Below, one piece after another: positions 3,926-38,806 of a stretch of DNA of 64,000 bases. A program made the translations under genes and the position numbers. Position 1 is the stretch's first letter. Every line of letters begins with the position of its first letter. The notes below the pieces were generated by a model. It saw nothing but the letters and a program-made list of their open reading frames with translations, did no database searches and was not told the DNA's origin. Origin of the DNA: Bacteroidales bacterium (GTDB lineage Bacteria; Bacteroidota; Bacteroidia; Bacteroidales; GCA-2748055); contig JAFGWU010000014.1 of the NCBI GenBank assembly GCA_016936975.1, forward strand, positions 23,529-87,528. The letters run 5' to 3'.

Positions 3926-3945
3926 ATCCCCCTTCAGTCTATCAG

Positions 3946-4001
3946 GACCCTGAACCCTGGACCCTGAACCCTGCACCCTGCACCCTGGACCCTGCACCCT
4001 C
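3946..4001. repeat. Tandem heptamer array (NACCCTG)x8; the minus strand reads (CAGGGTN)x8
   Basis: Direct reading: gaccctg aaccctg gaccctg aaccctg caccctg caccctg gaccctg caccctc. It lies between the convergent stops of 3398..3925 (+) and fhs (-). Confidence 0.95.
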
Positions 4002-4037: not shown

Positions 4038-5705
4038 TTAAAACAGTCCCGAAATATTTCCCTCATTATCGATGTCGATATTTTCGGCCGCCGGTTTGGA
4101 GGGGAGACCGGGCATACGCATGATGGTCCCGGTGATGGGGATCACAAATCCTGCTCCGGACGCAATCTCGATCTCGCGCACGGTCACGACAAAATCCTTC
4201 GGACGACCCAGCAGTTCGGGATTGTCCGAAAGGGATTTCTGTGTCTTTGCAATGCAAACAGGCAGGTTATCGAGACCGAGGTCCTTGATCTTTTGTAAAT
4301 CCTGCTTTGCCTGGGCAGTGTAGTCGACCGCTTCAGCCCCGTAAATGCATCTGGCGATGGTTTCCACCTTTTTCTCCGTGGGCCAGTCCCATTCATAAAG
4401 GGGCGTAAACGGCCGGTCGTTCCGGTTCACCACTTCGGCCACCTTATTGGCCAGATCCTTTGCCCCTTCTCCGCCCTTTGCCCATACATCGGCCACCGCA
4501 CAGGCGACTCCAAGTTTCCCTGCATGCTCCGTGATCGCCCCGATCTCCTCGTCGGTGTCTGATTTGAACCGGTTGATGGAGATGATGCACTCGGTGGAAA
4601 ACCTTTTGATGTTCTCTACATGTTTATCCAGATTGGCCAATCCTTTCCGGAGGGCCTCCACATTGGGTTCCCCAAGTTTATTTTGCTCAATCCCCCCGTG
4701 ATATTTGAGGGCCCTGATGGTGGCCACAAGCACTACGGCGCGGGGCGATAACCCTGCACTGCGGCATTTGATATCGAAGAATTTCTCGGCTCCCAGATCA
4801 AAACCGAACCCGGCCTCGGTGACGACATACTCTGAATGCGACAGTCCCATTCTTGTGGCAATGACGGAATTGGTACCCTGTGCAATGTTGGCGAACGGAC
4901 CGCCATGGATAATGGCCGGATTTCCCTCCAGGGTCTGAACCAGGTTCGGTTTGATGGCATCCTTCAGCAAGACCGTCATGGCGCCTTCGGCATGGAGGTC
5001 CCTGGCATACACAGGTTTCTTATCATAGGTATACCCGATGAAAATGTTCCCAATCCTCTTTTTGAGATCGGAGAGGTTATCGGCAAGGCATAGGATCGCC
5101 ATGATCTCCGATGCGGCAGTGATGTCAAATCCCGATTCACGGGGCACGCCGGAAGTGGTTCCTCCCAGGCCGATAATGATCCGCCGGAGGGCACGATCGT
5201 TCATGTCCATCACCCGTTTCCACTTCACAGTGCGCGGATCAATGCCAATGGAACCTGTTTTGCTCTGAATGTTATTGTCTATCAATGCAGCCAACAGGTT
5301 ATGTGCCTTTTCAATGGCGGCAAAATCGCCCGTGAAGTGCAGGTTGATATCTTCCATCGGCAGGACCTGACTGTATCCGCCGCCCGTGGCACCTCCCTTG
5401 ATTCCGAAAACAGGTCCCAGGGAAGGCTCCCTCAATACTACCGTGGTCTGGTAGCCCAGCCTGTTCATCCCTTCCGCCAGCCCGATGGAAGTGGTGGTTT
5501 TGCCCTCTCCGGCCGGAGTGGGGGAGATTGCAGAGACCAAAATGAGTTTTCCCTTTCTTACCTTCTCCGGATCAATCAGGTCCAGCGGCAGTTTGGCGAT
5601 ATACTTACCGTAGAAGTGAAGTTTTTCGGATTCAATATTAAGTCCCGAAGCAATCTCCGGGATGGGTCTGAGCGTTGTAGCCCGGGCAATGTCAATGTCG
5701 GTCAT
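4038..5705 (-). CDS. fhs: Formate--tetrahydrofolate ligase
   Basis: 555 aa. The N-terminus (MTDIDIARATTLRPIPEIASGLNI), P-loop region (SPTPAGEGKTTTSIGL) and length are typical of Fhs. Confidence 0.97.
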   Translation of the reverse strand: MTDIDIARATTLRPIPEIASGLNIESEKLHFYGKYIAKLPLDLIDPEKVRKGKLILVSAISPTPAGEGKTTTSIGLAEGMNRLGYQTTVVLREPSLGPVFGIKGGATGGGYSQVLPMEDINLHFTGDFAAIEKAHNLLAALIDNNIQSKTGSIGIDPRTVKWKRVMDMNDRALRRIIIGLGGTTSGVPRESGFDITAASEIMAILCLADNLSDLKKRIGNIFIGYTYDKKPVYARDLHAEGAMTVLLKDAIKPNLVQTLEGNPAIIHGGPFANIAQGTNSVIATRMGLSHSEYVVTEAGFGFDLGAEKFFDIKCRSAGLSPRAVVLVATIRALKYHGGIEQNKLGEPNVEALRKGLANLDKHVENIKRFSTECIISINRFKSDTDEEIGAITEHAGKLGVACAVADVWAKGGEGAKDLANKVAEVVNRNDRPFTPLYEWDWPTEKKVETIARCIYGAEAVDYTAQAKQDLQKIKDLGLDNLPVCIAKTQKSLSDNPELLGRPKDFVVTVREIEIASGAGFVIPITGTIMRMPGLPSKPAAENIDIDNEGNISGLF

Positions 5706-5905
5706 GGACTTTTGTGCTAAGGTTTTGTAACAAATGGATGCGAATTCCTAAAATTACTATTTTATTGGTGAAACACAAATTCCGGTTGGCAGCAGGCCGA
5801 ACCTGCACCATGCACCAGTCAATTAATCCCGACAGGTTTCCAAAGGATCCCAGAAAATGTCCCGATCTCTTCAAAGGTCAGCCTTGTGACGTCTGATTAC
5901 TGTCA

Positions 5906-6346
5906 AATGGCTCCGGAACCTGACACAATGTCACCGGAATGTCTTCAGATGCGGGGTGAAGGCTAACAAATGCGGACTGAAGGTTAACAAATGCGGACTG
6001 AAGGTTAACAAATGCGGACTGAAGGTTAACAAATGCGGCGTGAAGGTGATCAGATGGCACCGGAAGCTGACATAATGTCACCGGAATGGGCTCAAATGCG
6101 ATCTGAATGTCTCCAGATGCGGGGTGAATGTTAACAGAAACGGATTGAAGGTTAACAAATGCCGAGTGAAGGTCATCAGATGGCACCCGAAGCTGACACA
6201 ATGTCACCGGAATGTCTTCAGATGCGGGGTGAAGGCTAACAAATGCGGACGGAAGGTCAACAAATGCCGAGTGAAGGTGATCAGATGGCATCCGAAGCTG
6301 ACACAATGTCACCGTAATGGACTCAAATGCGATCTCGAATCCGCAT
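5906..6346. repeat. Array of 21 consecutive 21-bp units in perfect phase, with a higher-order A-B-C(n)-D-E structure
   Basis: The units read RATGnnnnnnGAAkGnnnnCA. AATGCGGACTGAAGGTTAACA is repeated three times identically at 5969-6031. 5927-5968 is identical to 6200-6241 (42/42). It lies in the divergent fhs/GH31 intergenic region. Confidence 0.95.
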
Positions 6347-6385
6347 CTGTCCGACCGCCAAAGGACCAGGTTTGCCAAATAATTG

Positions 6386-6393
6386 TACTTTTG
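6386..6393 (+). promoter_or_regulatory. Candidate Bacteroidota -7 promoter box (TACTTTTG matches TAnnTTTG) for the GH31 gene
   Basis: Exact match to the TAnnTTTG consensus, 52-58 nt upstream of the ATG at 6445/6451. Motif match only. Confidence 0.4.
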
Positions 6394-6444
6394 AGGAACC
6401 GATTTATCCATCTCCTGTATATTTAACACAGGACCCCGATCCAT

Positions 6445-9042
6445 ATGTACATGAAGATTAAACCAATTCTATTTTTTCTGTGCCTGGGATTCATGATCGT
6501 TTCCCGGTCCAATTCGCAGTCGATCGTTACAGTGACCGAAGAGGCTGATCAATTTCTCCTCTCCTCGGAAGCCCTGCACCTGAAAATTAAAAAAGATCCC
6601 TGGCATATCTCCGTTTATGACACGAAAGGGAATTTCATCTCCGGGGAGAAAAGCGGGGAGGTCTTCCTGTTCGGGACAGACCGGATCAGGGGTTGTGAAA
6701 GCGGTGATTATATTGAGATGGGATACGACACGCTGGTGAAAAGGGATCCTCATTTCTACCACCTGTATGATGAATCGGTCATCATCGGCGAATCGGTGGT
6801 TTTTGAATGTTTTACGGAATCGGGGAAAGCAGCACAGGTTTATGTAACCTTTCGAAATCCGTTTGTGTTCAGCGTATGGATGACCGTGCCCGATGTCGTC
6901 CAGCCTGTACGGCACCGGTTTGTTTCCGATGAGGGTGAGCATTTCTTCGGACTGGGGGAGTGCTGGGATGCGAGATCTCTGGATTTAAAAGGCCTTTCAA
7001 TTACCATGAACAATTCCTCTGGCACGCCCGACCAGGGTGGCTATATCCCTTTTTATGTCAGCACAGAAGGTTACGGGATCCTGGTGGACAATAACCTGAA
7101 GGTGAATTTCAATTTCACGGAGAGCGATGAGGTGTTCATCACTGCTCCGGCCATAAGCGGAAGTGAGGACGGGGCCGGCTATTTTTACGGTTCTTCCCTG
7201 CTCTATTACTTTTATTACGGACCCGGTCTGCTGGATGTCCTGGACCGGTTCACCGAACATGTTTCGAGACCTGCTCTGCCTCCTTCATGGGCCCTGTTCT
7301 CAACCTGGCAGTGGAGGGATACCAACGACGAAGCCAACGTATATAAGGATGCCGCCGGCATGCGTGATGAAGGGATACCCTGCGGATTGATCTGGATCGA
7401 CCGGCCCTGGGCGCAGGGAAGCGAGAACATGCCCCCTCCCTTTGAGTGGCAGACATCGAGATACCCCAACGGAAGCACCATGTTCGGCGACCTGCAGGAC
7501 GGGGGATATAAAACCGGCGTATGGGTGGCCAGGAACCTGTACGGCAGTTTTGCCGATTCAATGAATTACAAGCAGCTGAAGCTCGACACCAGACCATTCA
7601 TTGAGCGGGACAACTGCCAGATGTACAAGATCGACCGGGGGAACGTACAGAGTATCGACCCCCTGTTCACCTGCCAGGCTTACTACGAGGCCTGGGACGA
7701 TGTGCTGCACGGCGATTTCGTCACCCTGCCCCGGACCATTGCGAATCGCGCCCAGCAATATGTCTCCGGAAAATGGCCCGGGGACAATGATAATACCTAC
7801 GATTATCCCAGCGGACTGAAAGCCAACATTGCAGCCATGCTGAACCTGGCCATTGCCGGTTTCCCCTTCTGGGGAAGCGATACGGGAGGGTTCCCCGATC
7901 CGCCGGGCAATAACGTTACCATCCGGTGGGCACAGTTCTCCAGCTTCTGCACCATCTTTGAAACAGCCGGGACACCCTATAATTACAGCGGGACCTACCG
8001 GGACCTCTACCGGAAGTATGCCGAACTCTATACCCGCATGTTCCCCTACCGCTGGACCTATGCCCGGATGGCACATGAAAAGGGACACCCTGTTACTAGA
8101 GCCCTGCCTTTAGTGTTTCCGCAGGATGAAACAGGTTATGGAGAAAAATTTGAATATCTGTACGGCGACTGGATCCTGGTGGCCCCGGTAGTGGACGCCA
8201 CCTTTTCCAGGGATGTCTATCTGCCGGAAGGGACATGGTACGACTGGTGGGACGGTATGCCATATGAAGGCCCCATGACCATTAACGGTTATCCCGCGCC
8301 GGAAGATAAACTGCCCCTGTTCATTAAAGCAGGTGCCATAATCCCCATGATCGATGTTCAGCAAACCTGGCTGGATGCCAGCATGGATCCCATTACTCTC
8401 AGGATGTATCCTGAAGGGGAATCGGAATTCACCATTCTGGGAGATACCATTATTTATGAAGGTTTGGAGAAGCCGTATACCGGTTTAAAGACTACAAATG
8501 TCAAATGTTCAAAGACAGTGGGTGAAATCCGGATTGTTACCGGGGAGGTAACCGGATCACTCATCTATGAGTTACATCCCGGGGGAATCCCGCTTTCGGT
8601 GGAAAAGAATGAAACCGCTTTGCAGCAATTCAATTCCCGTTCCGAATGGGAGACAGCCCACGAAGGCTGGTATTATGAAGCCGGAAACGGCTCCATTGCC
8701 TGGATCAAAACTGCTGGTGGTGAACCGCGTGCCGATACCCTGCTGGTATTTTATGAGGATTTTGTCGCCACGGAATCTTTCATTGGGTTTTCTTCATTTG
8801 AGATTGTTCCCAATCCGGTCGGGGAGAAAGGAAAGATAGTGATAAACCTGACCCGCAACGCAATGGTTCAGATTGATGTGGTGGATATCCTCGGGCGGCA
8901 GGCTGTCCGGATGCCTGATGAATCCCATGCACCCGGGAGACATGAAATCGATCTCCCCGTTGACGGGCTCTACAGCGGACTTTACCTGGTAACCTGCAGG
9001 GTAAACGGGTCCTGCGGAACGGAGTTGATGGTGGTACGGTAG
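6445..9042 (+). CDS. Glycoside hydrolase family 31 (alpha-glucosidase/alpha-xylosidase type) with a T9SS C-terminal sorting domain
   Basis: Signal peptide present. GH31-like motifs GLIWIDRPW and KWPGDNDNTYD. The C-terminal ~80 aa (FEIVPNPVGEKGKIVINL...GLYLVTCRVNGSCGTELMVVR) match the T9SS type A CTD pattern. Alternative start at 6451 (MKIKPILFF). Confidence 0.85.
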   Translation: MYMKIKPILFFLCLGFMIVSRSNSQSIVTVTEEADQFLLSSEALHLKIKKDPWHISVYDTKGNFISGEKSGEVFLFGTDRIRGCESGDYIEMGYDTLVKRDPHFYHLYDESVIIGESVVFECFTESGKAAQVYVTFRNPFVFSVWMTVPDVVQPVRHRFVSDEGEHFFGLGECWDARSLDLKGLSITMNNSSGTPDQGGYIPFYVSTEGYGILVDNNLKVNFNFTESDEVFITAPAISGSEDGAGYFYGSSLLYYFYYGPGLLDVLDRFTEHVSRPALPPSWALFSTWQWRDTNDEANVYKDAAGMRDEGIPCGLIWIDRPWAQGSENMPPPFEWQTSRYPNGSTMFGDLQDGGYKTGVWVARNLYGSFADSMNYKQLKLDTRPFIERDNCQMYKIDRGNVQSIDPLFTCQAYYEAWDDVLHGDFVTLPRTIANRAQQYVSGKWPGDNDNTYDYPSGLKANIAAMLNLAIAGFPFWGSDTGGFPDPPGNNVTIRWAQFSSFCTIFETAGTPYNYSGTYRDLYRKYAELYTRMFPYRWTYARMAHEKGHPVTRALPLVFPQDETGYGEKFEYLYGDWILVAPVVDATFSRDVYLPEGTWYDWWDGMPYEGPMTINGYPAPEDKLPLFIKAGAIIPMIDVQQTWLDASMDPITLRMYPEGESEFTILGDTIIYEGLEKPYTGLKTTNVKCSKTVGEIRIVTGEVTGSLIYELHPGGIPLSVEKNETALQQFNSRSEWETAHEGWYYEAGNGSIAWIKTAGGEPRADTLLVFYEDFVATESFIGFSSFEIVPNPVGEKGKIVINLTRNAMVQIDVVDILGRQAVRMPDESHAPGRHEIDLPVDGLYSGLYLVTCRVNGSCGTELMVVR

Positions 9043-9212
9043 TTCAGGGCTTTGTCCTCCGTAGCCTTGGCGAAGGAGGATCAGGGTTCAGGGGGCTCAC
9101 CTGCGTTGCTACAGGCAACTTCGGTAGAGAAAGCAGGATCTTGATTCTTCATTTAGCTGAGTATACTGCTAAAAATCGTTGATATTCCAGGCCAGGCATG
9201 GCGTAGCTACGA

Positions 9213-9250
9213 CTGCTTACTGCTTACTGCTTACTGCTTACTGCTTACTG
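9213..9250. repeat. Tandem heptamer (CTGCTTA)x5 plus a partial unit
   Basis: Direct reading: ctgctta x5 then ctg. It lies between the convergent stops of GH31 (+) and the GH106-like gene (-). Confidence 0.95.
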
Positions 9251-9278: not shown

Positions 9279-12200
9279 TTATTGGTTCTTGAAGGAGATC
9301 AGCTTTACAGGACCCAGCAATCCGGATGGTTCGGCCCGGTAAACGCCCATAAAACTCCCGATAAATGTGTCCAGCATACGCTCATTTTCCGGCAGGATTG
9401 CATCCCCGGCCAGACGGTTGGTCCACTGGTTCGTTACGGTAATTTCGAGCGTATTGGTTCCTTTTTTTACAAATGAGGTAATATCCGTGCGGTATGGTTC
9501 TTTCCAGAGAAGGGGCAGGGCTTTTCCATTCAGTTTTATTTCTGCCATATCCCTCACCTCCCCGAGATCAATTGTGATGTTCTTCCCCTCCTTTAGCCTT
9601 TTTGCAGAAACCCTGAAAGTTTTACTGTAGGTTGCTGAACCGGAGAAGTACTTCATGAACGGGTCACTCAGTTCGGCCCACGATACCAGCCTGTCGAGGG
9701 TTAAGGGTCCGGGATTGCCCGGACCGGGCAGGAAGGTCAGCTCCCATGGTCCTTCTATTTCTGTGAGGATATGTTCCTCAGGAACCGAAAGAAACCTTTC
9801 GTCCGGAGAAGCGGAATTGCTGAACACCACGAAAACAGATCCGTATTCCGGGAAATGGAGCGGCACAGTGGTTGATCCGTTTTCATTTCTGAACGAAACA
9901 GGTTCCATGGTCCCTTCCCCGGGGTGCCAGCACTCGGCCTGTTTATGGTTTACCCTGAACCGGAACGTAACATTTTGTTCCGTGTCCGAACGGTTTGAAA
10001 TAAAATAGATATCCGTATCGTCCATCTTTCGGTGTATCCACGAAAATTCAGCGTTCAGTTTCCTGTCGTAATTCACATCCTCCTGAACGCCGATTCGTTC
10101 CAGGAGTGCGGGAAGCGGTTCTCCCCATGCGACCAATCCTTTCCCGGCATATCTAACCGTTCTTCCGTTCCCGTCCAGGTCCCCCCATAGCGCTTCCGAC
10201 AGTTCATGGATTTCCTGTTCGCTTTCCGGATAACCTGCCAGACCCGGGGAAGCTGTAACCTTCGGACCCAGGATGACGGCGCCCCCAATCACCAGCTCCC
10301 TGATTTTTCTTAGCAGGGGAAGGGTCATTCGTGGCGATCCCGGCAGGACCAGGATCCGGTAAGATGCTCCTCCGGGCAAAACGAGCTGTCCCCTCTCGTT
10401 TACATCCATCAGGTTGATCAGGGCATCCGCATTGATATAATCGTAATCGTACCCTTCTGGAACAGGAGGGCGAAGTCCGCCGCCCCAAAAGGGCATGGTC
10501 GACGGTGCCCCTTCGTCGAGCAGGTAAACCAGGTCGGCAACAGAATGCCCCTGCTGAAGCATAAATGAGGTGCGCGCAATGTAATCCATAAACGGCTTTG
10601 CCTGTTCCGCCCAGGTAATGTTCCGGTGCAGGTGTGTTCCCACCATGGTATTGCCGGGCCTGGTGTCGAGGGGCTGGTGGGCGGAAGTATGAAACACAAA
10701 CCGGTTAATGCCCTGCGTGAACCAGTAATCGCCAATTTGTTTCAACCTGAATGGAGACTCATATCCGCCTCCCGTGAAGGCTTCTGCCGCGGCAATTTTT
10801 TTGCCATAAACATGAGCAGCCGATGCAGCGCCACGGACATCCACCCGGTACATGATACCCGGATGCAGGTCCCAAACCCAGAACTCCCCCATGGGGACAT
10901 CAACCTGCTTTTTATTCAGCAGTGCATCTTCCATCACTTCCAGTGATACGCCCGATGCTTCACCGTAAGTTCTCAAGCCTTTTTCATGGGCGATACCGGT
11001 GATCGTTCCGTAATGATTTTCAGCAAACATATCGGCAAGCGTCCGGCGGAAATCCCACAGGAACCGGTCGCTCATCTCTGCGCTTTCCACAACGTAACCT
11101 GAAAGGGCCGGCAGCCAGGGCAGGGGATCGTACCCGCGGCGGGTGGCAAATTCTTCAGCCATATCATCGGTCCAGTTCTGCATCCCGGCCTCCCAGCTGT
11201 CGAGGAGCAGATGTTGCAGAGGTGTATCCTGCAAGGAACCCTCAGATTGCTCCAGCGCTTTCAGGTATGCTTCAATATAGGCCGCTGTATGTTCTTCATT
11301 CAGTTTGTCCACCTCATAACCGGTCCCGGCAGGAACGGCCGGCCGGTTTTTTGCACCGGTCAGGGAATAGCCGAACCGCATGATGGTCCATGACCCTTCA
11401 GGAACATCCCAGCTGAGGACCCCGTTTTCATCCATTCGGCCGGTCAGGTCCGTCACCTGTTGTGCACTGATTACCGATGTTCCGGGTGCTTCGGGGGTGG
11501 GGGAGGAACCATATTCAAACAGTATGCTGAATCCGGCCTTATCTTCCCACCGGTGAACCCGGCTTCCCTGATGAAGGATGCATTCGGTAAGGGTGACGGC
11601 ATCGGGATATTTAAGGAGTGTTTGGCTCATTACTCCTGCCGGCGATGGGGCGGCCCTGGTTATTTCCAGCCTGAAACAACGGGCTGTGGTCCCGGGAAAA
11701 GTATAGGTTCTGACCTTCCCGGACCTGTAGTTCTGGGTTCCGGGTAACGACACGATGGTCCGGAACGCCTGTCCGTCATCTCCGGCCAGCAGCCTTCCTT
11801 CGGGGATCCCTTCCCGGGAGGCAATTGAGAATGATCGTACCGTAACGGGCATCTCATAAGTGAACTGGATCCAGAGCGGACCGCTGTCGGCCGGCGGGGA
11901 GATTTTCAGTGCGGTATTCAGGTTATCGTCCAACAGGGGGTTGCCATCCAAATTGCCGGAATGGGTGGTTACAACGGGCTGATGTTTACTGTATACCTGT
12001 TCGTCCGGCGGTATGGGGAAGGCAATTATCCTCTGGTCCCTGTAGTATATGGGATTTGCGATCGTATCCGGTCTGCTGCTGCGCTGCATATCCCTGATGG
12101 GTCCATTATTTGCAGGTGGTTTGGGAAGGCTTCCGTTGAACAGGGAGGGACCATCCACGGTTGTTTTACTCCAGACCAGCTTTTTCATGGCCTGTTCGGG

Positions 12201-20712: not shown

Positions 20713-20818
20713 GCGAATAAGCGACTGAGCGAATAAGCGACTGAACGATTAGGCGACTGGGCGAATAAGCGACTGAGCGATTAGGCGACTGGGCGAGACT
20801 GGGCGACTGGGCGAATAA
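20713..20818. repeat. Tandem 8-bp array (13 units; 16-bp dimer GCGAATAA-GCGACTGR)
   Basis: Direct reading, starting at the first base after the SusD stop codon. The unit at 20793-20802 has a 2-nt insertion (GCGAGACTGG). Confidence 0.95.
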
Positions 20819-21941: not shown

Positions 21942-22403
21942 CTACCTCATGAATTTTCTCAGTAATTCAGAGCAGATACTGTATCCGTTTCGCCACTCAC
22001 TCTCCCTGGGGCCGGAAAAGTTGAGTATGGCAGGTTTGATCCGGTCGGTAAACTTGCGAAGCTTCATGGCTGCCTTTTCGGGGGTGTGAACCGACATATC
22101 AAGCAGGAGGAACGGCTTCCCTTCCTGACGTGTGAACATATAGGATTCCAGCGTGCCACCCTCCATCTCCTCCATGAAAATGATCACCGTGGCATCGCTT
22201 CCGATGACATTGGCCCGGGTGCGATCAAGATAATCACCACCCGGCAGTTCGGTGAGAGGATACTTTTTATCGATGATACCATCTTCGGCTTTCCGGTCCT
22301 GGGGACACCATCCGCCGCATTCCACACGATTTCCCAGGCAAAAATCGAGCACGGCCCTGTCGACGCCTGTCTGTCCCCCGGAAATGAGTTTTATTTTATC
22401 CAT
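21942..22403 (-). CDS. SLOG-superfamily protein of the YpsA / 'putative molybdenum carrier' type
   Basis: ISGGQTGVDRAVLDFCL...GGWCPQDRKAEDG resembles the PF12694-type motif as I recall it. It overlaps the upstream kinase gene by 13 nt. Confidence 0.6.
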   Translation of the reverse strand: MDKIKLISGGQTGVDRAVLDFCLGNRVECGGWCPQDRKAEDGIIDKKYPLTELPGGDYLDRTRANVIGSDATVIIFMEEMEGGTLESYMFTRQEGKPFLLLDMSVHTPEKAAMKLRKFTDRIKPAILNFSGPRESEWRNGYSICSELLRKFMR

Positions 22404-23314
22404 AATATGTCCCCGTCAAATTTTTCAGTCAGGAAATCAATGGCAGTTTCGTGGCAGATTCCCAACAGATAGCCTCCGCCGGAACCATTCAGCTTAAGAT
22501 AATATTCATTGCTGACCTGGCCCTCGATCCACGGATCCAGCATATGGTCGGGAATCATCTTCCTGAAATGGTTGTACTGAAAATCGGAAATCACCCGGAA
22601 AATTAGACCCGGGTCGGTTTTCTCCAATCCGAGAAGCGCATCGATCAGTCTTTGATTCATGCGTAGATACTCTTCCCTGATCCTTGTTTCAAACTTTTCA
22701 TCCTTCATTTGTTCGAGGAAATATCCAACCAGCGGAGCGGTATCAAACCGGGTATGCGAATCGAGAAGGAAAAACCGGTATTTCATGGGCAGGTCCGACA
22801 GGTCCAGCTTCACCTCTGTTATGGTTCCGTCTTCCCTGAAATAGAGCGGGGCTTTCCTGAAGCAGGTGAGGGCATCCACCCCGGAGCTTCTGCCATGGAA
22901 ATAGGATTCGATCAGCACCAGGTCATGTCGCTGTTCTTCCATCGTCAGGCTGTCGGAATACTCGAAAAACTGATTGTAAAGACAGGCTGCCAGGGCTCCC
23001 GAACTGCCCAGTCCGTATCCCTCGGGAATGCTCGATTCGTACCAGAGGTCACCTGAATACTCTTCAAAAAGTTTCTTATTAAATCTTGCTTTAAAATTAT
23101 CTTCCGGCAGCCGGACCAGGTAATGATATAGGTCCTGAACCGATTGATTGGAAATGGCGGCCTGCTCAGCCATACCTGGAGGGACTTCTTTCATCCGCCG
23201 TGGACGGGTGGTGAAAATCCCAAAGGGAATCGTAAGCGCGCTTCCACCCAGAATGACGCCGTACTCCCCTGTGAGCATGATTTTTGCAGGAAACAGGATA
23301 TTTTCAGAATTCAT
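22391..23314 (-). CDS. GHMP-family kinase (mevalonate kinase candidate)
   Basis: N-terminal KIMLTGEYGVILGGSALTIPF and GHMP motif PEGYGLGSSGALAACLY, in a mevalonate-operon context. Confidence 0.75.
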   Translation of the reverse strand: MNSENILFPAKIMLTGEYGVILGGSALTIPFGIFTTRPRRMKEVPPGMAEQAAISNQSVQDLYHYLVRLPEDNFKARFNKKLFEEYSGDLWYESSIPEGYGLGSSGALAACLYNQFFEYSDSLTMEEQRHDLVLIESYFHGRSSGVDALTCFRKAPLYFREDGTITEVKLDLSDLPMKYRFFLLDSHTRFDTAPLVGYFLEQMKDEKFETRIREEYLRMNQRLIDALLGLEKTDPGLIFRVISDFQYNHFRKMIPDHMLDPWIEGQVSNEYYLKLNGSGGGYLLGICHETAIDFLTEKFDGDILWIK

Positions 23315-23319
23315 AAATA

Positions 23320-24513
23320 TTATATTTTACGGGCATCAGTCCCGGTTCGTGAAGGACCGTTACCCATCCGGTCACTGATAAAATATCCGTTTTCACAGTA
23401 TGCCCTGAGATCTGATCCAATAAAAGCATCAATTTCTTTTGCATCTTCTTCAGCATAAATAAGGTGCACATTGGCTCCCGCATCCAGTGTGAACCCAACC
23501 CGGTGACCGGTCCCGTTCCTGTATTCCCTTACCAGGCTGATGATTTTTAGTGATTCGGGTTGCATCAGCAGATAGCCGGGCCGGCCGGTCATCATCATGG
23601 CATGAAGGGTAAGTGCTTCCGTTTCCAGGATTTCAATGAATCCCTTCCAGTCTCCTGAGGCAATGTATTCCTTCAGCAGGCTGAGATTTGTTCCTGCCTG
23701 TCTGAAACGTACCTCGGCGAAAGGGTTGTTTTGCATGAGGGCATGACCGGCACTGCTGGATACTTTTTTTGCACCCGACTCGACAATCAGAATCGTATCC
23801 CGGATCGCTCCCAGGTTCCGGTGAACAGGAATCACAGGAATAGCATATTCATTGCTCGAACCGGCCCACTCCTTGCTTTCCCCCCACAACGCCATGTTGC
23901 CGTATACCGACCGCGATGCACTGCCCGAACCCAGCCGTGCAATAAAAGAAGCCTTCCGAAAAAACCACTCTTCATCTTTAAGTGATGAACGGCCATCCTG
24001 AACTTGTTTCAGGATCTTCTTCGTTTCTTGGTTTGTCTTCCGTTCGGGGGCCTGTTTCAGGATCTGCTCCTCCATTTCGCACAGGCAAAGGGCAAGAGCT
24101 CCCATGGCCGATGCACTGGAGGCAATGCCGGAGGAGTGCGGAAAGCTGTTACGCGAATGAACCGTCAGTTCGGCCTGTTTGAGAAAAGGCAGATAAGCTG
24201 TAACCGCAGTGAGGACCTTCAGGATTCGCGCCTCAAAGTCGGGTGCCGGTTTTTTTTCAAAAAAGAAGCTGAGTCCGGTTTCTTTCCTGCCGGGATCAAT
24301 GCTATAATCCACCCGGGTTTCGGTTACGGCCTTATCGAGTGTGATGCTGAGGGAGGGATTCATTGGAATCTGAACCGGTCGTTTGCCCCAGTATTTGACG
24401 ATTGCAATATTCGAGGGACAGGTCCAGCCAACTGTTCCGGAGAGGGGGCCGATCCGTCCGGACGGAAAATCCTTCAGGGCGGCAACCAGTTCATCATGAT
24501 ACGACATTCCCAT
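23320..24513 (-). CDS. mvaD: Diphosphomevalonate decarboxylase
   Basis: PSNIAIVKYWGKR, SFPHSSGIASSASAMGALALCL and GSGSASRSVYG are typical MVD motifs. Confidence 0.9.
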   Translation of the reverse strand: MGMSYHDELVAALKDFPSGRIGPLSGTVGWTCPSNIAIVKYWGKRPVQIPMNPSLSITLDKAVTETRVDYSIDPGRKETGLSFFFEKKPAPDFEARILKVLTAVTAYLPFLKQAELTVHSRNSFPHSSGIASSASAMGALALCLCEMEEQILKQAPERKTNQETKKILKQVQDGRSSLKDEEWFFRKASFIARLGSGSASRSVYGNMALWGESKEWAGSSNEYAIPVIPVHRNLGAIRDTILIVESGAKKVSSSAGHALMQNNPFAEVRFRQAGTNLSLLKEYIASGDWKGFIEILETEALTLHAMMMTGRPGYLLMQPESLKIISLVREYRNGTGHRVGFTLDAGANVHLIYAEEDAKEIDAFIGSDLRAYCENGYFISDRMGNGPSRTGTDARKI

Positions 24514-25426
24514 GCTTTACCAGTTCGTTAAAGTTAAAAAGCACCCTGATTTTTTTCTTCTCCAGGTATTCTTTCAAAGATTCATGATCCCTGCCGGTTA
24601 CGATCATGACAAAGTCACCACCCCATGCGCCCAGGGACTTCACGTATCCGTCCAGGTCATTGAACAGGGTTTTCCCGACAGGCGTCAGGTTCAGCAGTTC
24701 AGAGAGTCGAGCCTCGTGGCGGGTCATATAATCTCCGAACTCATCGCGGTTGCCTGCATGAAGCATTCCCTCGGTCATCGCATCGAAAAATTCGATTGTC
24801 CGGTGGTCGGGGTCCAGGACGGATTGATAATGTTCAACGCTTTCATGAGAGTTTTGCTTTCTTCCGAGCCAGGCGAAGAAGATATTGTCTGAGAAGGCGG
24901 GAAGGAAGCTGACATGCCTGTACTGCGGGGCATCGTGTTTGATACGGTATACGATGGGTCCGCTGGCGATGGCGGTGGCGACATCATATCCGGATCCTGA
25001 AGAGATTTGCAGGTGCAGGTCGAGGGGGTTGAGTTCGGCCCACTCAGCGAGAAGGGCGGTAAGGGTCGAGCTGCTGCCAAGACCCCAGGAGGGATGGAAC
25101 TCGAGTTGGGTTTCAACATCCCAGGTAAAGAGCTCCTGCCGGAATGATGAGGAGAGTGTATCAAGGGTCTTTAGATAACCGGCCAGCTTTTCGGCTTTGG
25201 ATCGATCGGTTGTCTCTACGATCTCCAGGGTTGAAGAATTGAAAACGACCCGGAACCAGGGCCTGTTGAGATAGAAAGCCTCCCAGCAAAACAGCTTTTT
25301 TTGCCGTGCTGGTTTGAGATGGAGGGATTGTCCGACATGCAGGGGAAAGGAGAGGGCCTGGGCTCCGTACATTACCATGTACTCGGAGGAGATAAGCAGC
25401 TTGCCGTGGGCGTAAAATGGTTTCAA
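24494..25426 (-). CDS. GYDIA-type GHMP kinase (phosphomevalonate kinase candidate)
   Basis: GKLLISSEYMVMYGAQALSFPL, SWGLGSSSTLTALLAEW and SGSGYDVATAI (GYDIA-like motif). Confidence 0.75.
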   Translation of the reverse strand: MKPFYAHGKLLISSEYMVMYGAQALSFPLHVGQSLHLKPARQKKLFCWEAFYLNRPWFRVVFNSSTLEIVETTDRSKAEKLAGYLKTLDTLSSSFRQELFTWDVETQLEFHPSWGLGSSSTLTALLAEWAELNPLDLHLQISSGSGYDVATAIASGPIVYRIKHDAPQYRHVSFLPAFSDNIFFAWLGRKQNSHESVEHYQSVLDPDHRTIEFFDAMTEGMLHAGNRDEFGDYMTRHEARLSELLNLTPVGKTLFNDLDGYVKSLGAWGGDFVMIVTGRDHESLKEYLEKKKIRVLFNFNELVKHGNVVS

Positions 25427-35782: not shown

Positions 35783-38700
35783 ATGACACCGAAAAACCCG
35801 TTTCCCGGATTACGACCCTTCACACTGGAAGAAGCCAATCTTTTTTTCGGTCGTGAAAAACAGGTCAGGGCAGTACTGAAACTGCTTAATTCCAATGGGA
35901 TCGTGTTCGTTACAGGCGTACCGGGAATCGGTAAGACATCTCTGGTCCAATGCGGAGTAGCTCAGGAGTTTTTGAAAACGGCGGGTGAATCGGCCAGAAT
36001 TATCAGCTTCTGCCCGGGGGTCGATCCGATAAGGAGCCTGGTGGATGCGTTTATGAAAAATTTCCCCGGCAAAATCGGGGCAATGGAGGATGTAGTATTG
36101 CTGAATGGGGATGTGACATTGGAATCCTGGCTTAAAGAACACGATCTTATGCATTTCAATTTTCTGCTGATCATCGATAAATTGGAGGAGATATTCAGGG
36201 ATGCTACATTACACGATACAAAGACCGGGGATAACCGGGTGAAAAGATTTGTTGATCTGATTTCCGGGGCAGTTCATGTGCCGGAGCATAAAATCCGGGT
36301 GGCAATTACAATACGGTCGGAAAGGATTGGAGAGTGTTCCGCCTGCAGTGAACTAACCGGTTTGCTCAACAGGAGCCATTATATGTTACCGGTGATGACC
36401 CGTGATAATTACAGGGAGGTCATTGAAGGTCCTTTAAAACAGGCCGGTGTTTCCATAGATGGGAATCTGCTCACACAATTACTGGATGAGACGGGAGAAT
36501 TTGTCAACCGGCTTCCCATGCTCCAGCATGCCATGATGCGGACATTTGATCACTGGAAGGTCCAGAATAAACCTTCAAAGCCATTGTCTGTTATAAATTA
36601 TGAGTCCACCGGAACGCTTCTCAAGGCAGTTTCCCAACATGCTGATGAGGCCTTTTCCGAACTGGGAGAGAAGCAAAAGGAAATCTGCCAGATCTTCTTT
36701 AAAACAATAACGGAAAAAAACGGGGTTGCTGAAGGAATCAGCAGGCCGGCCACTATCGGGAAGATTGCCGGTATTGCTCAATGTGCAACAGAAGAGGTTA
36801 TCGGGGTTGTAAATCATTTCAGGTCGGAGGGAAGAATCTTTTTAACCCCCTGTCATCCTCAGAAATTACTGCCTGCAAGTACAGTTGATCTTTCCCATGA
36901 GTTATTGATGCAATATTGGGATAAATTACGGTTATGGGTTGAGGAGGAGGCCTCATCGGTAGCGATGTACAGGAAACTGGTTAAAGCCTCCGCACTTTAT
37001 CAGGCCGGCCGGATCGGACTGCTGAGGCCGCCCGACCTCGATCTTGCCCTGAGGTGGAAAGAAGAACAAAAACCCCGGCTCGAATGGGCCGCTCAATACA
37101 ATCCGGCCTTTGAGCGGTCGATGCTTTATCTGAACCTGAGTCAGGAAGAATATTTAAAGGAGCAAAATAAAGCGGTCAGATTGCAGAAGAGGAAGTTAAG
37201 GATGCCGCTCATTATTACAGGTGTGGCAGGCATTATGGCAGTGACAGCAACCGGCTTGTTTTTCGGGACCAGGGAAGGATCCAGGCAGGTCGAGGTGGCT
37301 TCAAATGTGGGGGCACCCTCTTTGGAGACTCCGGAACCGGTCGGATTCGAAGCTGAAGTTTTTCCGGAAGATACTTTGCTGTCCACGGCAACAACTCTGG
37401 AAAACCGGGAGCCTGAACAAAGGGAAGAAGAACCTGATTCCCGGCAGGAATCCACTCTCCGGGAAAATATTGAACAGGAGAGAAGGGAGGTCAGGATTGC
37501 AAGGACGACCTCACAGGAAGCCCGCCGCCAGCAGCAGGTCGCTGCACAGAATGAACAGGCCGCGGTTGAGCAGATGGAACAGGCGGAGACGGAACGGCAG
37601 AGAGAATATCGTAACAGGCTCATCTCAAAAGCTAAATCCATTGCTGTGAGATCACTCCAGTTGAGCGACGATCCGGACCTGCAGGCATTGCTTGCTGTTC
37701 AGGCTTACCGGTTTAACTCGGAAAACGGGGGATACCGTTATGATGCCGACATATACCGGGGGCTGTACAACGCCCTTAAAAGCAAAATTTCAGACGGCTA
37801 TAATGTGTATAGCGGACATAACTACTCCGTCAGGTCCCTTGCGTGGTATAAGAGAAGAAATGGATTTCTGAGCGCCGACAGCCAGGGAAAAATTCTCTTC
37901 ATGTCCGGCGATTTTCGGAATAACAGGTCCAATTCGTTAATCGCCAATACCGGGCACGTCAATGAAGCAGTCGCAATCAGCCCTGATGAAACCCTTTTTG
38001 CCTGCGGGACAGATGGTGGGGGATTATATGTTTTTCAGATGTCGGACCCCTCGGAGAATTACAGCTTCAGGGAAGCCCACGGGGGGAAAGTGCAGATGCT
38101 TGCATTCTATGATAGCGGGAGGAGACTGGTTTCTGCCGGAGCTGATAACACAATCATGAAATGGAATCTCAACAGCCGGACGGGAGAGTTATTCGCTCAG
38201 CTAGAATCCAGGCCGACATCAATGGCTGTCTCAAATGCTTTAACGCACCTGGTCGTTGGAACAAGAGACGGAAAACTGGTGGAGTACCTTTTCGAAAATC
38301 CGGGTGATGGAAGGATTTTATACCATAACTCCGGAAATCCGGTCATGGCCGTAACATATAGTCCCAATGACAATCAGGTCGTCATTGGAACGCTGGATGG
38401 ATCGGTAAGGATAATCAACCGAAGCAATATATCTTCTGTGATAACCGTAAAGGGGCCGGAAGCACGGGTAACTGATCTGGCTTACAGTAATAACGGAAAA
38501 TTCCTGGCTGCTGCCTCGCATGATGGCAATGTTTACCTCTGGGAAACATCTGATTGGAACGAACAACCGGTAGTGGTGGGAGATAACCAGGGATTTGTAC
38601 TGACCCTCTGTTTCAGCGATGACAGCCGGCATTTCTACAGCGGAAGCACAAAAGCCCCATTGCTGATTGGAAGGCCCGTGGAATCTTCCCTGATGGTGAA

Positions 38701-38806
38701 CGGTTTCTGTGCATTGATAAACAGAAATCTGTCACGTGAGGAATGGAATATGTATATCGGAGATGATATTCCTTACGAAAAAACCTGTCCGGAAAAAGAG
38801 CCATAA
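35783..38806 (+). CDS. STAND-class NTPase (nSTAND-like) - single TM - E/Q/R-rich coiled coil - 7-bladed WD40 propeller
   Basis: N-terminus NPFPGLRPFTLEEANLFFGREKQV. Walker A GVPGIGKTS and Walker B LLIIDKLEE. TM segment MPLIITGVAGIMAVTATGLFFG preceded by KRKLR. Low-complexity EQR segment. Seven WD-like blades (for example HGGKVQMLAFYDSGRRLVSAGADNTIMKWNL and VTDLAYSNNGKFLAAASHDGNVYLWE). Confidence 0.85.
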   Translation: MTPKNPFPGLRPFTLEEANLFFGREKQVRAVLKLLNSNGIVFVTGVPGIGKTSLVQCGVAQEFLKTAGESARIISFCPGVDPIRSLVDAFMKNFPGKIGAMEDVVLLNGDVTLESWLKEHDLMHFNFLLIIDKLEEIFRDATLHDTKTGDNRVKRFVDLISGAVHVPEHKIRVAITIRSERIGECSACSELTGLLNRSHYMLPVMTRDNYREVIEGPLKQAGVSIDGNLLTQLLDETGEFVNRLPMLQHAMMRTFDHWKVQNKPSKPLSVINYESTGTLLKAVSQHADEAFSELGEKQKEICQIFFKTITEKNGVAEGISRPATIGKIAGIAQCATEEVIGVVNHFRSEGRIFLTPCHPQKLLPASTVDLSHELLMQYWDKLRLWVEEEASSVAMYRKLVKASALYQAGRIGLLRPPDLDLALRWKEEQKPRLEWAAQYNPAFERSMLYLNLSQEEYLKEQNKAVRLQKRKLRMPLIITGVAGIMAVTATGLFFGTREGSRQVEVASNVGAPSLETPEPVGFEAEVFPEDTLLSTATTLENREPEQREEEPDSRQESTLRENIEQERREVRIARTTSQEARRQQQVAAQNEQAAVEQMEQAETERQREYRNRLISKAKSIAVRSLQLSDDPDLQALLAVQAYRFNSENGGYRYDADIYRGLYNALKSKISDGYNVYSGHNYSVRSLAWYKRRNGFLSADSQGKILFMSGDFRNNRSNSLIANTGHVNEAVAISPDETLFACGTDGGGLYVFQMSDPSENYSFREAHGGKVQMLAFYDSGRRLVSAGADNTIMKWNLNSRTGELFAQLESRPTSMAVSNALTHLVVGTRDGKLVEYLFENPGDGRILYHNSGNPVMAVTYSPNDNQVVIGTLDGSVRIINRSNISSVITVKGPEARVTDLAYSNNGKFLAAASHDGNVYLWETSDWNEQPVVVGDNQGFVLTLCFSDDSRHFYSGSTKAPLLIGRPVESSLMVNGFCALINRNLSREEWNMYIGDDIPYEKTCPEKEP

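Follow-up and report, generated by a model that had tools for sequence, protein, structure and literature searches.

A 21-bp tandem array between the divergent fhs and GH31 genes of a Bacteroidales bacterium, probably a non-coding minisatellite and at most a passive spacer

The fhs/GH31 locus and the array of 21-bp units

The window, that is, the whole 64-kb stretch analysed here, is ordinary chromosomal DNA of a Bacteroidales bacterium. It carries polysaccharide-utilisation genes (GH106, GH88, SusC/SusD) together with mevalonate-pathway and leucine-catabolism genes and those for FtsH, Lon and RsfS; genes for replication, partition, transposases and hybrid two-component regulators are absent from it. 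The genes for formate-tetrahydrofolate ligase (fhs) and a GH31 glycoside hydrolase diverge from each other, and a tandem array of 21-bp units lies between them; no regulator, rep, par or RHH gene was found near this array. The GH31 reading frame starts at 6445 or 6451 and ends at 9042, and its product is 100% identical to the NCBI entry 'MAG: hypothetical protein JXR52_01620 [Bacteroidales bacterium]'. The features of the locus, in positions of the window, are as follows.

4038..5705, minus strand: fhs, formate-tetrahydrofolate ligase (PF01268, E 6e-261)
5749..5779, minus strand: candidate fhs promoter, read by eye; TTTG (5779-5776), N19, TAATTTTA (5756-5749)
5878..6444, minus strand: 188-aa ORF through the array, with heptads such as LQSAFVN, judged spurious from coding tests
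5906..6325: core array of 20 in-phase 21-bp units without an indel; plus-strand consensus RATGnnnnnnGAAkGnnnnCA
5927..6073: first higher-order block, 147 bp long and made of units 2-8 (A B C C C D E), from Tandem Repeats Finder (TRF) and a cut into 21-mers
6073..6075, plus strand: TAA, the single stop in an otherwise open plus frame (KCGLKVN heptads)
6074..6199: second higher-order block, 126 bp long and made of units 9-14 (A′ F B C D E), from TRF and a cut into 21-mers
6200..6304: third higher-order block, 105 bp long and made of units 15-19 (A B C D E); it opens with the same 42 bp as 5927-5968
6326..6346: 21st unit, degenerate and shifted out of register by a 1-bp insertion, from its profile score
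6386..6393, plus strand: candidate GH31 -7-type box TACTTTTG, read by eye
6451..9042, plus strand: GH31 glycoside hydrolase that ends in a C-terminal T9SS sorting domain (JXR52_01620, in the 863-aa form given by NCBI)

The array consists of head-to-tail repeats with a unit length within the 10-100 bp of minisatellites, and its units abut one another without the unique spacers that characterize a CRISPR array. An earlier note on this DNA described 21 phase-perfect units. Units 1-20 indeed share one register with no indel, whereas unit 21 does not belong to this register: an inserted base sets it apart from unit 10, its paralogue (CTCGAAT vs CTGAAT), and its profile score is -7.8 against 13.7-28.6 for the others. 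The edges of the array are sharp, and a profile scan of the flanks gave no convincing degenerate unit. Six unit types, which diverge at up to about 10 of the 21 positions, follow one another in the order E / A B C C C D E / A′ F B C D E / A B C D E / A′ F. TRF, the check proposed in the earlier note, returned periods of 21, 105 and 126 bp, and the higher-order pattern of 105-147 bp claimed there is reproduced as blocks of 147, 126 and 105 bp; likewise, units 2-3 (5927-5968) match units 15-16 (6200-6241) at 42 of 42 positions, and AATGCGGACTGAAGGTTAACA occurs three consecutive times at 5969-6031, both as stated before. When 5906-6346 is cut into 21-mers, columns 2-4 (ATG) and 11-13 (GAA) are invariant or nearly so. 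By our calculation, six columns are invariant across the unit types versus about eight expected under neutral divergence; these columns gather in the two triplets, for which a combinatorial estimate gives approximately p = 0.01. The previously proposed consensus holds up, matching 15 times in the array and 16 times in the whole 64 kb, where 7.2 +/- 2.9 matches are expected.

Logan contigs of SRR13394436/37 match both edges of the array base for base, on the left as far as 5977/5949 and on the right from 6221 onward, and these contigs end within the array. Because independent assemblies match the edges and break inside, the array itself is real and the copy number of its interior rests on one MAG assembly. 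The array is thus an assembly-fragile spot in this MAG.

Self-comparison of the array gives a base identity of 0.63 at offset 21, 0.58 at offset 42 and 0.54 at offset 63, against a background of 0.245 +/- 0.05. Smaller peaks are found at offsets 10 and 11 (0.35 and 0.34), 31 and 32 (0.37 and 0.36) and 52 and 53 (0.38 and 0.36). Each unit divides into a 10-bp and an 11-bp half-unit that are related to each other (about RAKGYnRnC) and plainest in the A type (AATGTCACCGG followed by AATGTCTTCA), and the basic period is therefore one helical turn. The array shows neither power at period 3 nor a signal at offset 7. The half-unit structure and the missing 3-bp periodicity go beyond the earlier note, and its proposal that the period keeps step with the helix agrees with both the 10/11-bp sub-period and the 1.99 helical turns per unit in a dinucleotide wedge model. 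In this model, which uses parameters of the Bolshoy/Trifonov set and whose results are indicative only, the bend is an ordinary one of 12.6 degrees per 21 bp but sums in phase, and the ratio of end-to-end distance to contour length is 0.549 for the array compared with 0.868 +/- 0.08 (minimum 0.564) for other 441-bp windows. The model thus predicts a spacer curved in one plane. Among column-permuted arrays, 27% are at least as curved as the real one in the same model, so that the predicted curvature would belong to the 21-bp period and not to the particular sequence.

Coding capacity, transcripts and promoters

The 188-aa minus-strand ORF (5878-6444) is uninterrupted across the array, as had been reported, and is almost certainly an artefact. 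The 22 recent substitutions among paralogous units fall on its codon positions 1, 2 and 3 in the numbers 9, 8 and 5, and 5 of them are synonymous and 17 non-synonymous. The plus frame (KCGLKVN) was also considered as coding, since its third positions first seemed more variable, and was rejected: recent events are distributed 5/8/9 over its codon positions, with 8 synonymous to 14 non-synonymous changes and one nonsense change (TAA at 6073-6075). No Pfam family matches the 188-aa ORF, and neither the ORF nor a shorter version of it is present in a collection of 5.8 billion proteins searched with a word index. Both neighbours of the ORF from the same MAG are present in this collection, indicating that NCBI annotation did not call the ORF. 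The one match in that search, P0001, is itself the translation of a 21-bp array on an unrelated contig, and that frame contains a stop. An exhaustive phmmer search of 1.84 billion representatives gave 12 matches, all of them repeat proteins or translated arrays, HMMER E-values being inflated for such repeat-versus-repeat matches.

The phmmer matches most like the ORF are P0164 and P0169, large T9SS-secreted subtilase-like proteins of Bacteroidota with long runs of NLGG(A/S)F(I/V) heptads (at about residues 380-560 and 960-1150, respectively). Their LGGAFVN resembles LQSAFVN of the window, but the likeness is confined to the repeat and the window ORF has no coding signature. A tblastn search with the ORF found no similarity beyond repeats, and descent of the ORF from a T9SS heptad protein as a relic was rejected because there is no likeness outside them. 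AlphaFold2 gives a mean pLDDT of 37.6 with no residue above 50, which is weak evidence, as a single-sequence prediction. At least one open frame is kept by 58% of column-permuted arrays. The ORF has no signal peptide, and its start overlaps the GH31 promoter and 5′ region. Of what would be expected from a heptad-repeat protein, namely purifying selection or a period of 3, homologues beyond the repeat and a confident fold, none was observed. The earlier preference for a non-coding array over a heptad protein is therefore sustained by the substitutions, the period-3 analysis, the homologue searches, the fold and the chance of an open frame alike.

At the RNA level, Rfam gave 0 matches over the window, and neither strand of the array folds better than shuffles (z = -0.28 and -1.0). 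A structured RNA or riboswitch upstream of fhs was rejected on these two nulls. A minus-strand transcript of the array would be pyrimidine-rich, with C>G. A replication origin was rejected as well, because there is no skew turn at the array and no DnaA- or Rep-type context.

The promoter consensus of Bacteroidota is TTTG / TAnnTTTG. The candidate fhs promoter lies 127 bp from the array and the candidate GH31 -7 box 40 bp from the array end; the latter is the TAnnTTTG box that the earlier note had placed at 6386-6393, and it reads TACTTTTG as described. A canonical -33 TTTG at 19-21 nt from this box is absent, the TTTG at 6371-6374 being only 11 nt upstream. As read by eye, the putative fhs and GH31 promoters both point away from the array, and no TAnnTTTG box reads into it. 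Lying upstream of both candidate promoters, the array is probably part of neither mRNA. Unit sequence also makes up an imperfect palindrome at 6327-6346, ATGCGAT-CTCGA-ATC(C)GCAT, on the promoter-proximal side of the array, where CCGCATCTG (6341-6349) repeats the unit junction CAGATGCGG in inverted orientation. This palindrome with its inverted junction (6327-6349) could be an ancestral operator of which one half-site was amplified, or a product of chance (rough p 0.02-0.05).

Relatives of the locus and arrays elsewhere

The closest available GH31 proteins are 70% identical (loci L121 and L123) and the closest available fhs proteins 80% identical (loci L138 and L139), so that the comparison with nearest relatives is one at 70-80% protein identity, with one full assembly. 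The array is absent from L121 and L123, which have short upstream regions and different upstream genes. It is also absent from the 748-bp region upstream of fhs in L138, which is without any 21-bp repeat, and in L139 fhs comes directly after mevalonate-pathway genes. None of the upstream regions of the relatives aligns with the window. Mevalonate genes (GHMP kinase, MVD) directly precede fhs in both L138 (1-877) and L139 (1-2931), with cpYpsA in L138 only; those of the window lie at 21945-25426, 16 kb from fhs, which suggests that a rearrangement put fhs beside GH31. Because the relatives lack the array and have another gene order, the array seems to sit at a rearrangement junction and to be lineage-specific.

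BrickBuilt of Porphyromonas gingivalis is a spacer-less array of a 23-nt unit in up to 22.8 copies, is always intergenic and near promoters, and has sometimes been mis-annotated as hypothetical genes (Klein et al., 2015; PMC4596501). Its leader and tail segments carry IS5-like terminal inverted repeats (TIRs), there are 19 copies per genome, and the arrays carry 0-6% indels (PMC4596501). Likewise, the array of the window occurs in the order Bacteroidales, has spacer-less imperfect units of about 20 nt with conserved and variable positions, is intergenic and close to promoters, and contains a spurious ORF. It differs in its 21-bp unit, in the 0 indels of 20 units, and in having no TIRs, no common flanks and no second copy in 64 kb. 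BrickBuilt is the closest known analogue, and the array is not a member. Using BrickBuilt TIR sequences taken from the literature, we found no IS5-like TIRs around the array; look-alikes of IS5-type TIRs with at most 3 mismatches number 25-31 per 64 kb, which is the chance level. More generally, no terminal inverted repeats were found at the array, whose flanks have only an 8-mer in common. Copies of the unit elsewhere in the 64 kb do not exceed chance, the best score of 17.7 being within the shuffle range. A blastn comparison of the array with 72,556 plasmids and 50,697 phages found nothing, and the consensus pattern matched no viral contig.

Arrays of 21-bp units occur in many other places. 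A three-unit pattern with a TTTGTTAAC core found 118 arrays in many phyla among 185,579 genomes, with unrelated units; most of them lie outside long ORFs and nearly all have 0% indels. A conserved DNA family defined by this core, which the window shares with locus L002, was considered and rejected because the search pattern itself dictates the common FVN heptad and none of the loci is homologous to the window. The consensus of the earlier note matched 12 metagenome contigs, 5 of them with AATGTTCCCTGAAkGnnTCCA, and a family defined in this way was also rejected, as at most 6 of 10 unforced positions are like the window units, which is not significant after multiple comparisons. There is no preference of 21-bp arrays for divergent promoter regions, since 3 are in divergent, 10 in convergent and 14 in tandem arrangement. 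Intergenic 21-bp arrays thus represent a scattered, recurrent phenomenon and not one family.

Several of these arrays are worth describing in their own right. The AATGTTCCCTGAAkGnnTCCA arrays are found in four JGI metagenomes (L124 583-723, L126 404-689, L127 407-1276, L131 1-256 and L134 4647-4734). The one in L127 has more than 28 units and higher-order periods of 149-211 bp, and that in L134, among Planctomycete-like genes, lies about 170 bp upstream of a 384-aa gene, in a geometry like that of the window array and fhs. L002 (JGI 3300029914, Ga0311359_10014227) has a 16-unit 21/42-bp array of GCGTTTGTTAACTTACAAGCGAC / GTTTGTAAATCAACACGCGGC at 9513-9845. This array has genes for a DNA methylase, HNH and Vsr as neighbours, precedes a gene start by about 320 bp, and was called in part as the 122-aa protein P0001. 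On the Sedimentisphaerales chromosome OY759675.1, an ORF-like element of about 186-203 aa is present in at least five paralogous copies at dispersed sites (L004 1854-2414, L065 5062-5631, L066 957-1568 and L078 5926-6507; also L084 and L096). This element, corresponding to P0167, has a 21-bp array core (heptad LKNGFVN) with conserved flanks and a unit copy number that differs from one element to the next, and resembles either a dispersed element that bears a minisatellite or a small family of repeat proteins.

Nature of the array and competing explanations

The array, whose anatomy, non-coding character, absence from relatives and lack of mobile-element, plasmid and RNA signatures are described above, is probably a lineage-specific non-coding minisatellite and at most a curved passive spacer between the divergent fhs and GH31 promoters. 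As to how it was generated, its curvature and any effect on transcription, we infer the following. A 21-bp unit of two half-units of about 10.5 bp would have been amplified by replication slippage or unequal recombination, the amplified units would have diverged into six types, and re-amplification would then have proceeded in blocks of 5-7 units; the 42/42 identity suggests recent exchange between blocks. The array fills the space between the divergent candidate promoters and is almost certainly not translated, and its effect would most likely be physical and not sequence-specific, as a spacer of 420-440 bp in which the small bends of the units, recurring about every two helical turns, may sum in a single plane. 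A change in copy number would alter both the length and the curvature of the DNA parting the two promoters.

Bacterial VNTRs or minisatellites, which are defined by copy-number polymorphism and known from MLVA typing and as promoter-proximal repeats that modulate expression, share with the array the head-to-tail repeats of 10-100 bp, the origin by slippage or unequal recombination, the higher-order blocks and the recent identity between blocks. However, VNTRs do not in general show helical phasing with a half-unit of 10.5 bp. Counting against a plain minisatellite are the zero indels, the clustered invariant columns and the array end near the GH31 -7 box, although neither of the first two is strong. 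There are 0 indels across 20 units despite about 40 substitutions, fewer than neutral decay would leave as estimated from general indel:substitution ratios, and this hints at selection for phase. Upstream elements often act at about 40 bp from the -7 box, where the array ends. It is nevertheless rather improbable that the strict 21-bp phase has been selected and that the array is a planar-curved scaffold, absorbing supercoils or coated by a protein oligomer on one face, which would uncouple or tune the fhs and GH31 promoters. If the helix-locked, zero-indel period were selected, the locus would offer a simple bacterial test system for the control of divergent-promoter coupling by curvature or phased coating, and a bacterial counterpart of helically phased minisatellite insulators. 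Such insulators have been described as the PATCs of C. elegans, which are helically phased minisatellites acting as mechanical insulators (bioRxiv 10.64898/2026.08.08.743475). In PATCs as in the window array, the minisatellite period matches the helical repeat of DNA and encodes in-plane curvature, but PATCs belong to eukaryotic chromatin, have a 10-bp periodicity of A/T clusters and were tested experimentally, whereas the curvature of the window array is a model prediction generic to any 21-bp array.

More weight, while still unlikely, can be given to phased binding sites, on which an oligomerising protein would sit once per 10.5 or 21 bp on one helix face, wrap or stiffen the DNA and so control GH31 and/or fhs. 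Candidates would be a nucleoid protein or a regulator of the AraC/XylS, OmpR or LytTR type, whose footprint covers two adjacent major grooves; LytTR and AraC sites are spaced 21 bp. The strict phase with its 10/11-bp sub-period and 1.99 turns per unit, the two clustered invariant triplets (ATG and GAA), the end of the array just upstream of the GH31 promoter region and the palindrome of unit sequence at its promoter-proximal end (6327-6346) are all in favour of such sites. However, no single sites beyond chance exist elsewhere in the 64 kb, the identity of 63% at lag 21 with types differing at up to 10 of 21 positions is far looser than in known iterons or operators, the count of invariant columns does not exceed the neutral prediction, no regulator gene is adjacent and the array is not kept in relatives. 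The earlier suggestion that the array is a set of protein-binding sites or a regulator of fhs/GH31 thus finds no support: no unit beyond chance in 64 kb, six invariant columns against about eight, no regulator nearby, and a curvature that is generic. Iterons and ParR centromeres, such as the 20-bp repeats of pSK41 parC and the 11-bp repeats of R1 parC, are bound cooperatively on one DNA face. As in these systems, the direct repeats of the array abut one another, recur after a whole number of helical turns (one or two) and lie beside a promoter, but no rep, par or RHH gene is near, the context is one of chromosomal housekeeping and polysaccharide utilisation, and the units are far more diverged (63% at lag 21, six types) and more numerous.

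Improbable, too, is that the array is the internal minisatellite of a MITE-like, possibly formerly mobile, element like BrickBuilt, inserted at a synteny breakpoint. It sits where gene order departs from that of relatives, and array-bearing elements are dispersed in other phyla (at least five copies in Sedimentisphaerales OY759675.1), with BrickBuilt as a precedent in Bacteroidales (PMC4596501); against this stand the missing TIRs, flanks with only the common 8-mer, TIR look-alikes at chance level, the lack of a second copy in 64 kb and of a transposase nearby, and a unit of 21 instead of 23. Transcribed repeat RNA, acting as a long fhs leader, a protein sponge or a pyrimidine-rich Rho-loading region, is very improbable. 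The C>G, pyrimidine-rich composition of a minus-strand transcript would suit it, and BrickBuilt arrays are transcribed in P. gingivalis (PMC4596501), yet there is no Rfam family, neither strand folds better than shuffles, and plausible core promoters appear to lie between the array and each gene, pointing outward. A genuine 188-aa heptad-repeat protein on the minus strand is hardly credible: its 188 codons are open and LQSAFVN resembles the NLGGAFVN of the T9SS-secreted subtilases P0164 and P0169, but the results on substitutions, homology, Pfam, pLDDT, permutation and period 3 are all against it, as are a start overlapping the GH31 promoter/5′ region, the missing signal peptide and the stop in the same frame of the L002 array.

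For a lineage-specific minisatellite of this kind the practical value is modest, in that the 188-aa ORF should not be annotated. The array also illustrates cleanly how a bacterial minisatellite can combine higher-order blocks with a sub-period of one helical turn.

TRF found three more intergenic tandem repeats in the 64 kb, each just past gene 3′ ends: (G/A/C)ACCCTG x7.7 at 3945-4000, between a 175-aa ORF and the fhs stop; ACTGCTT x5.6 at 9212-9250, between the convergent GH31 and GH106 genes; and an 8/16/32-bp GCGAATAAGCGACTGA array at 20713-20818, after a SusD-like gene. This Bacteroidales genome seems prone to short intergenic repeats, which is in line with a minisatellite between fhs and GH31. 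Elsewhere in the window, 35783-38806 encodes a 1007-aa protein in which an nSTAND1 NTPase domain is followed by WD40 repeats, an architecture that recalls STAND-type immune or signalling proteins, and the genes that follow it encode an OMP beta-barrel protein and a T9SS protein of 1513 aa.
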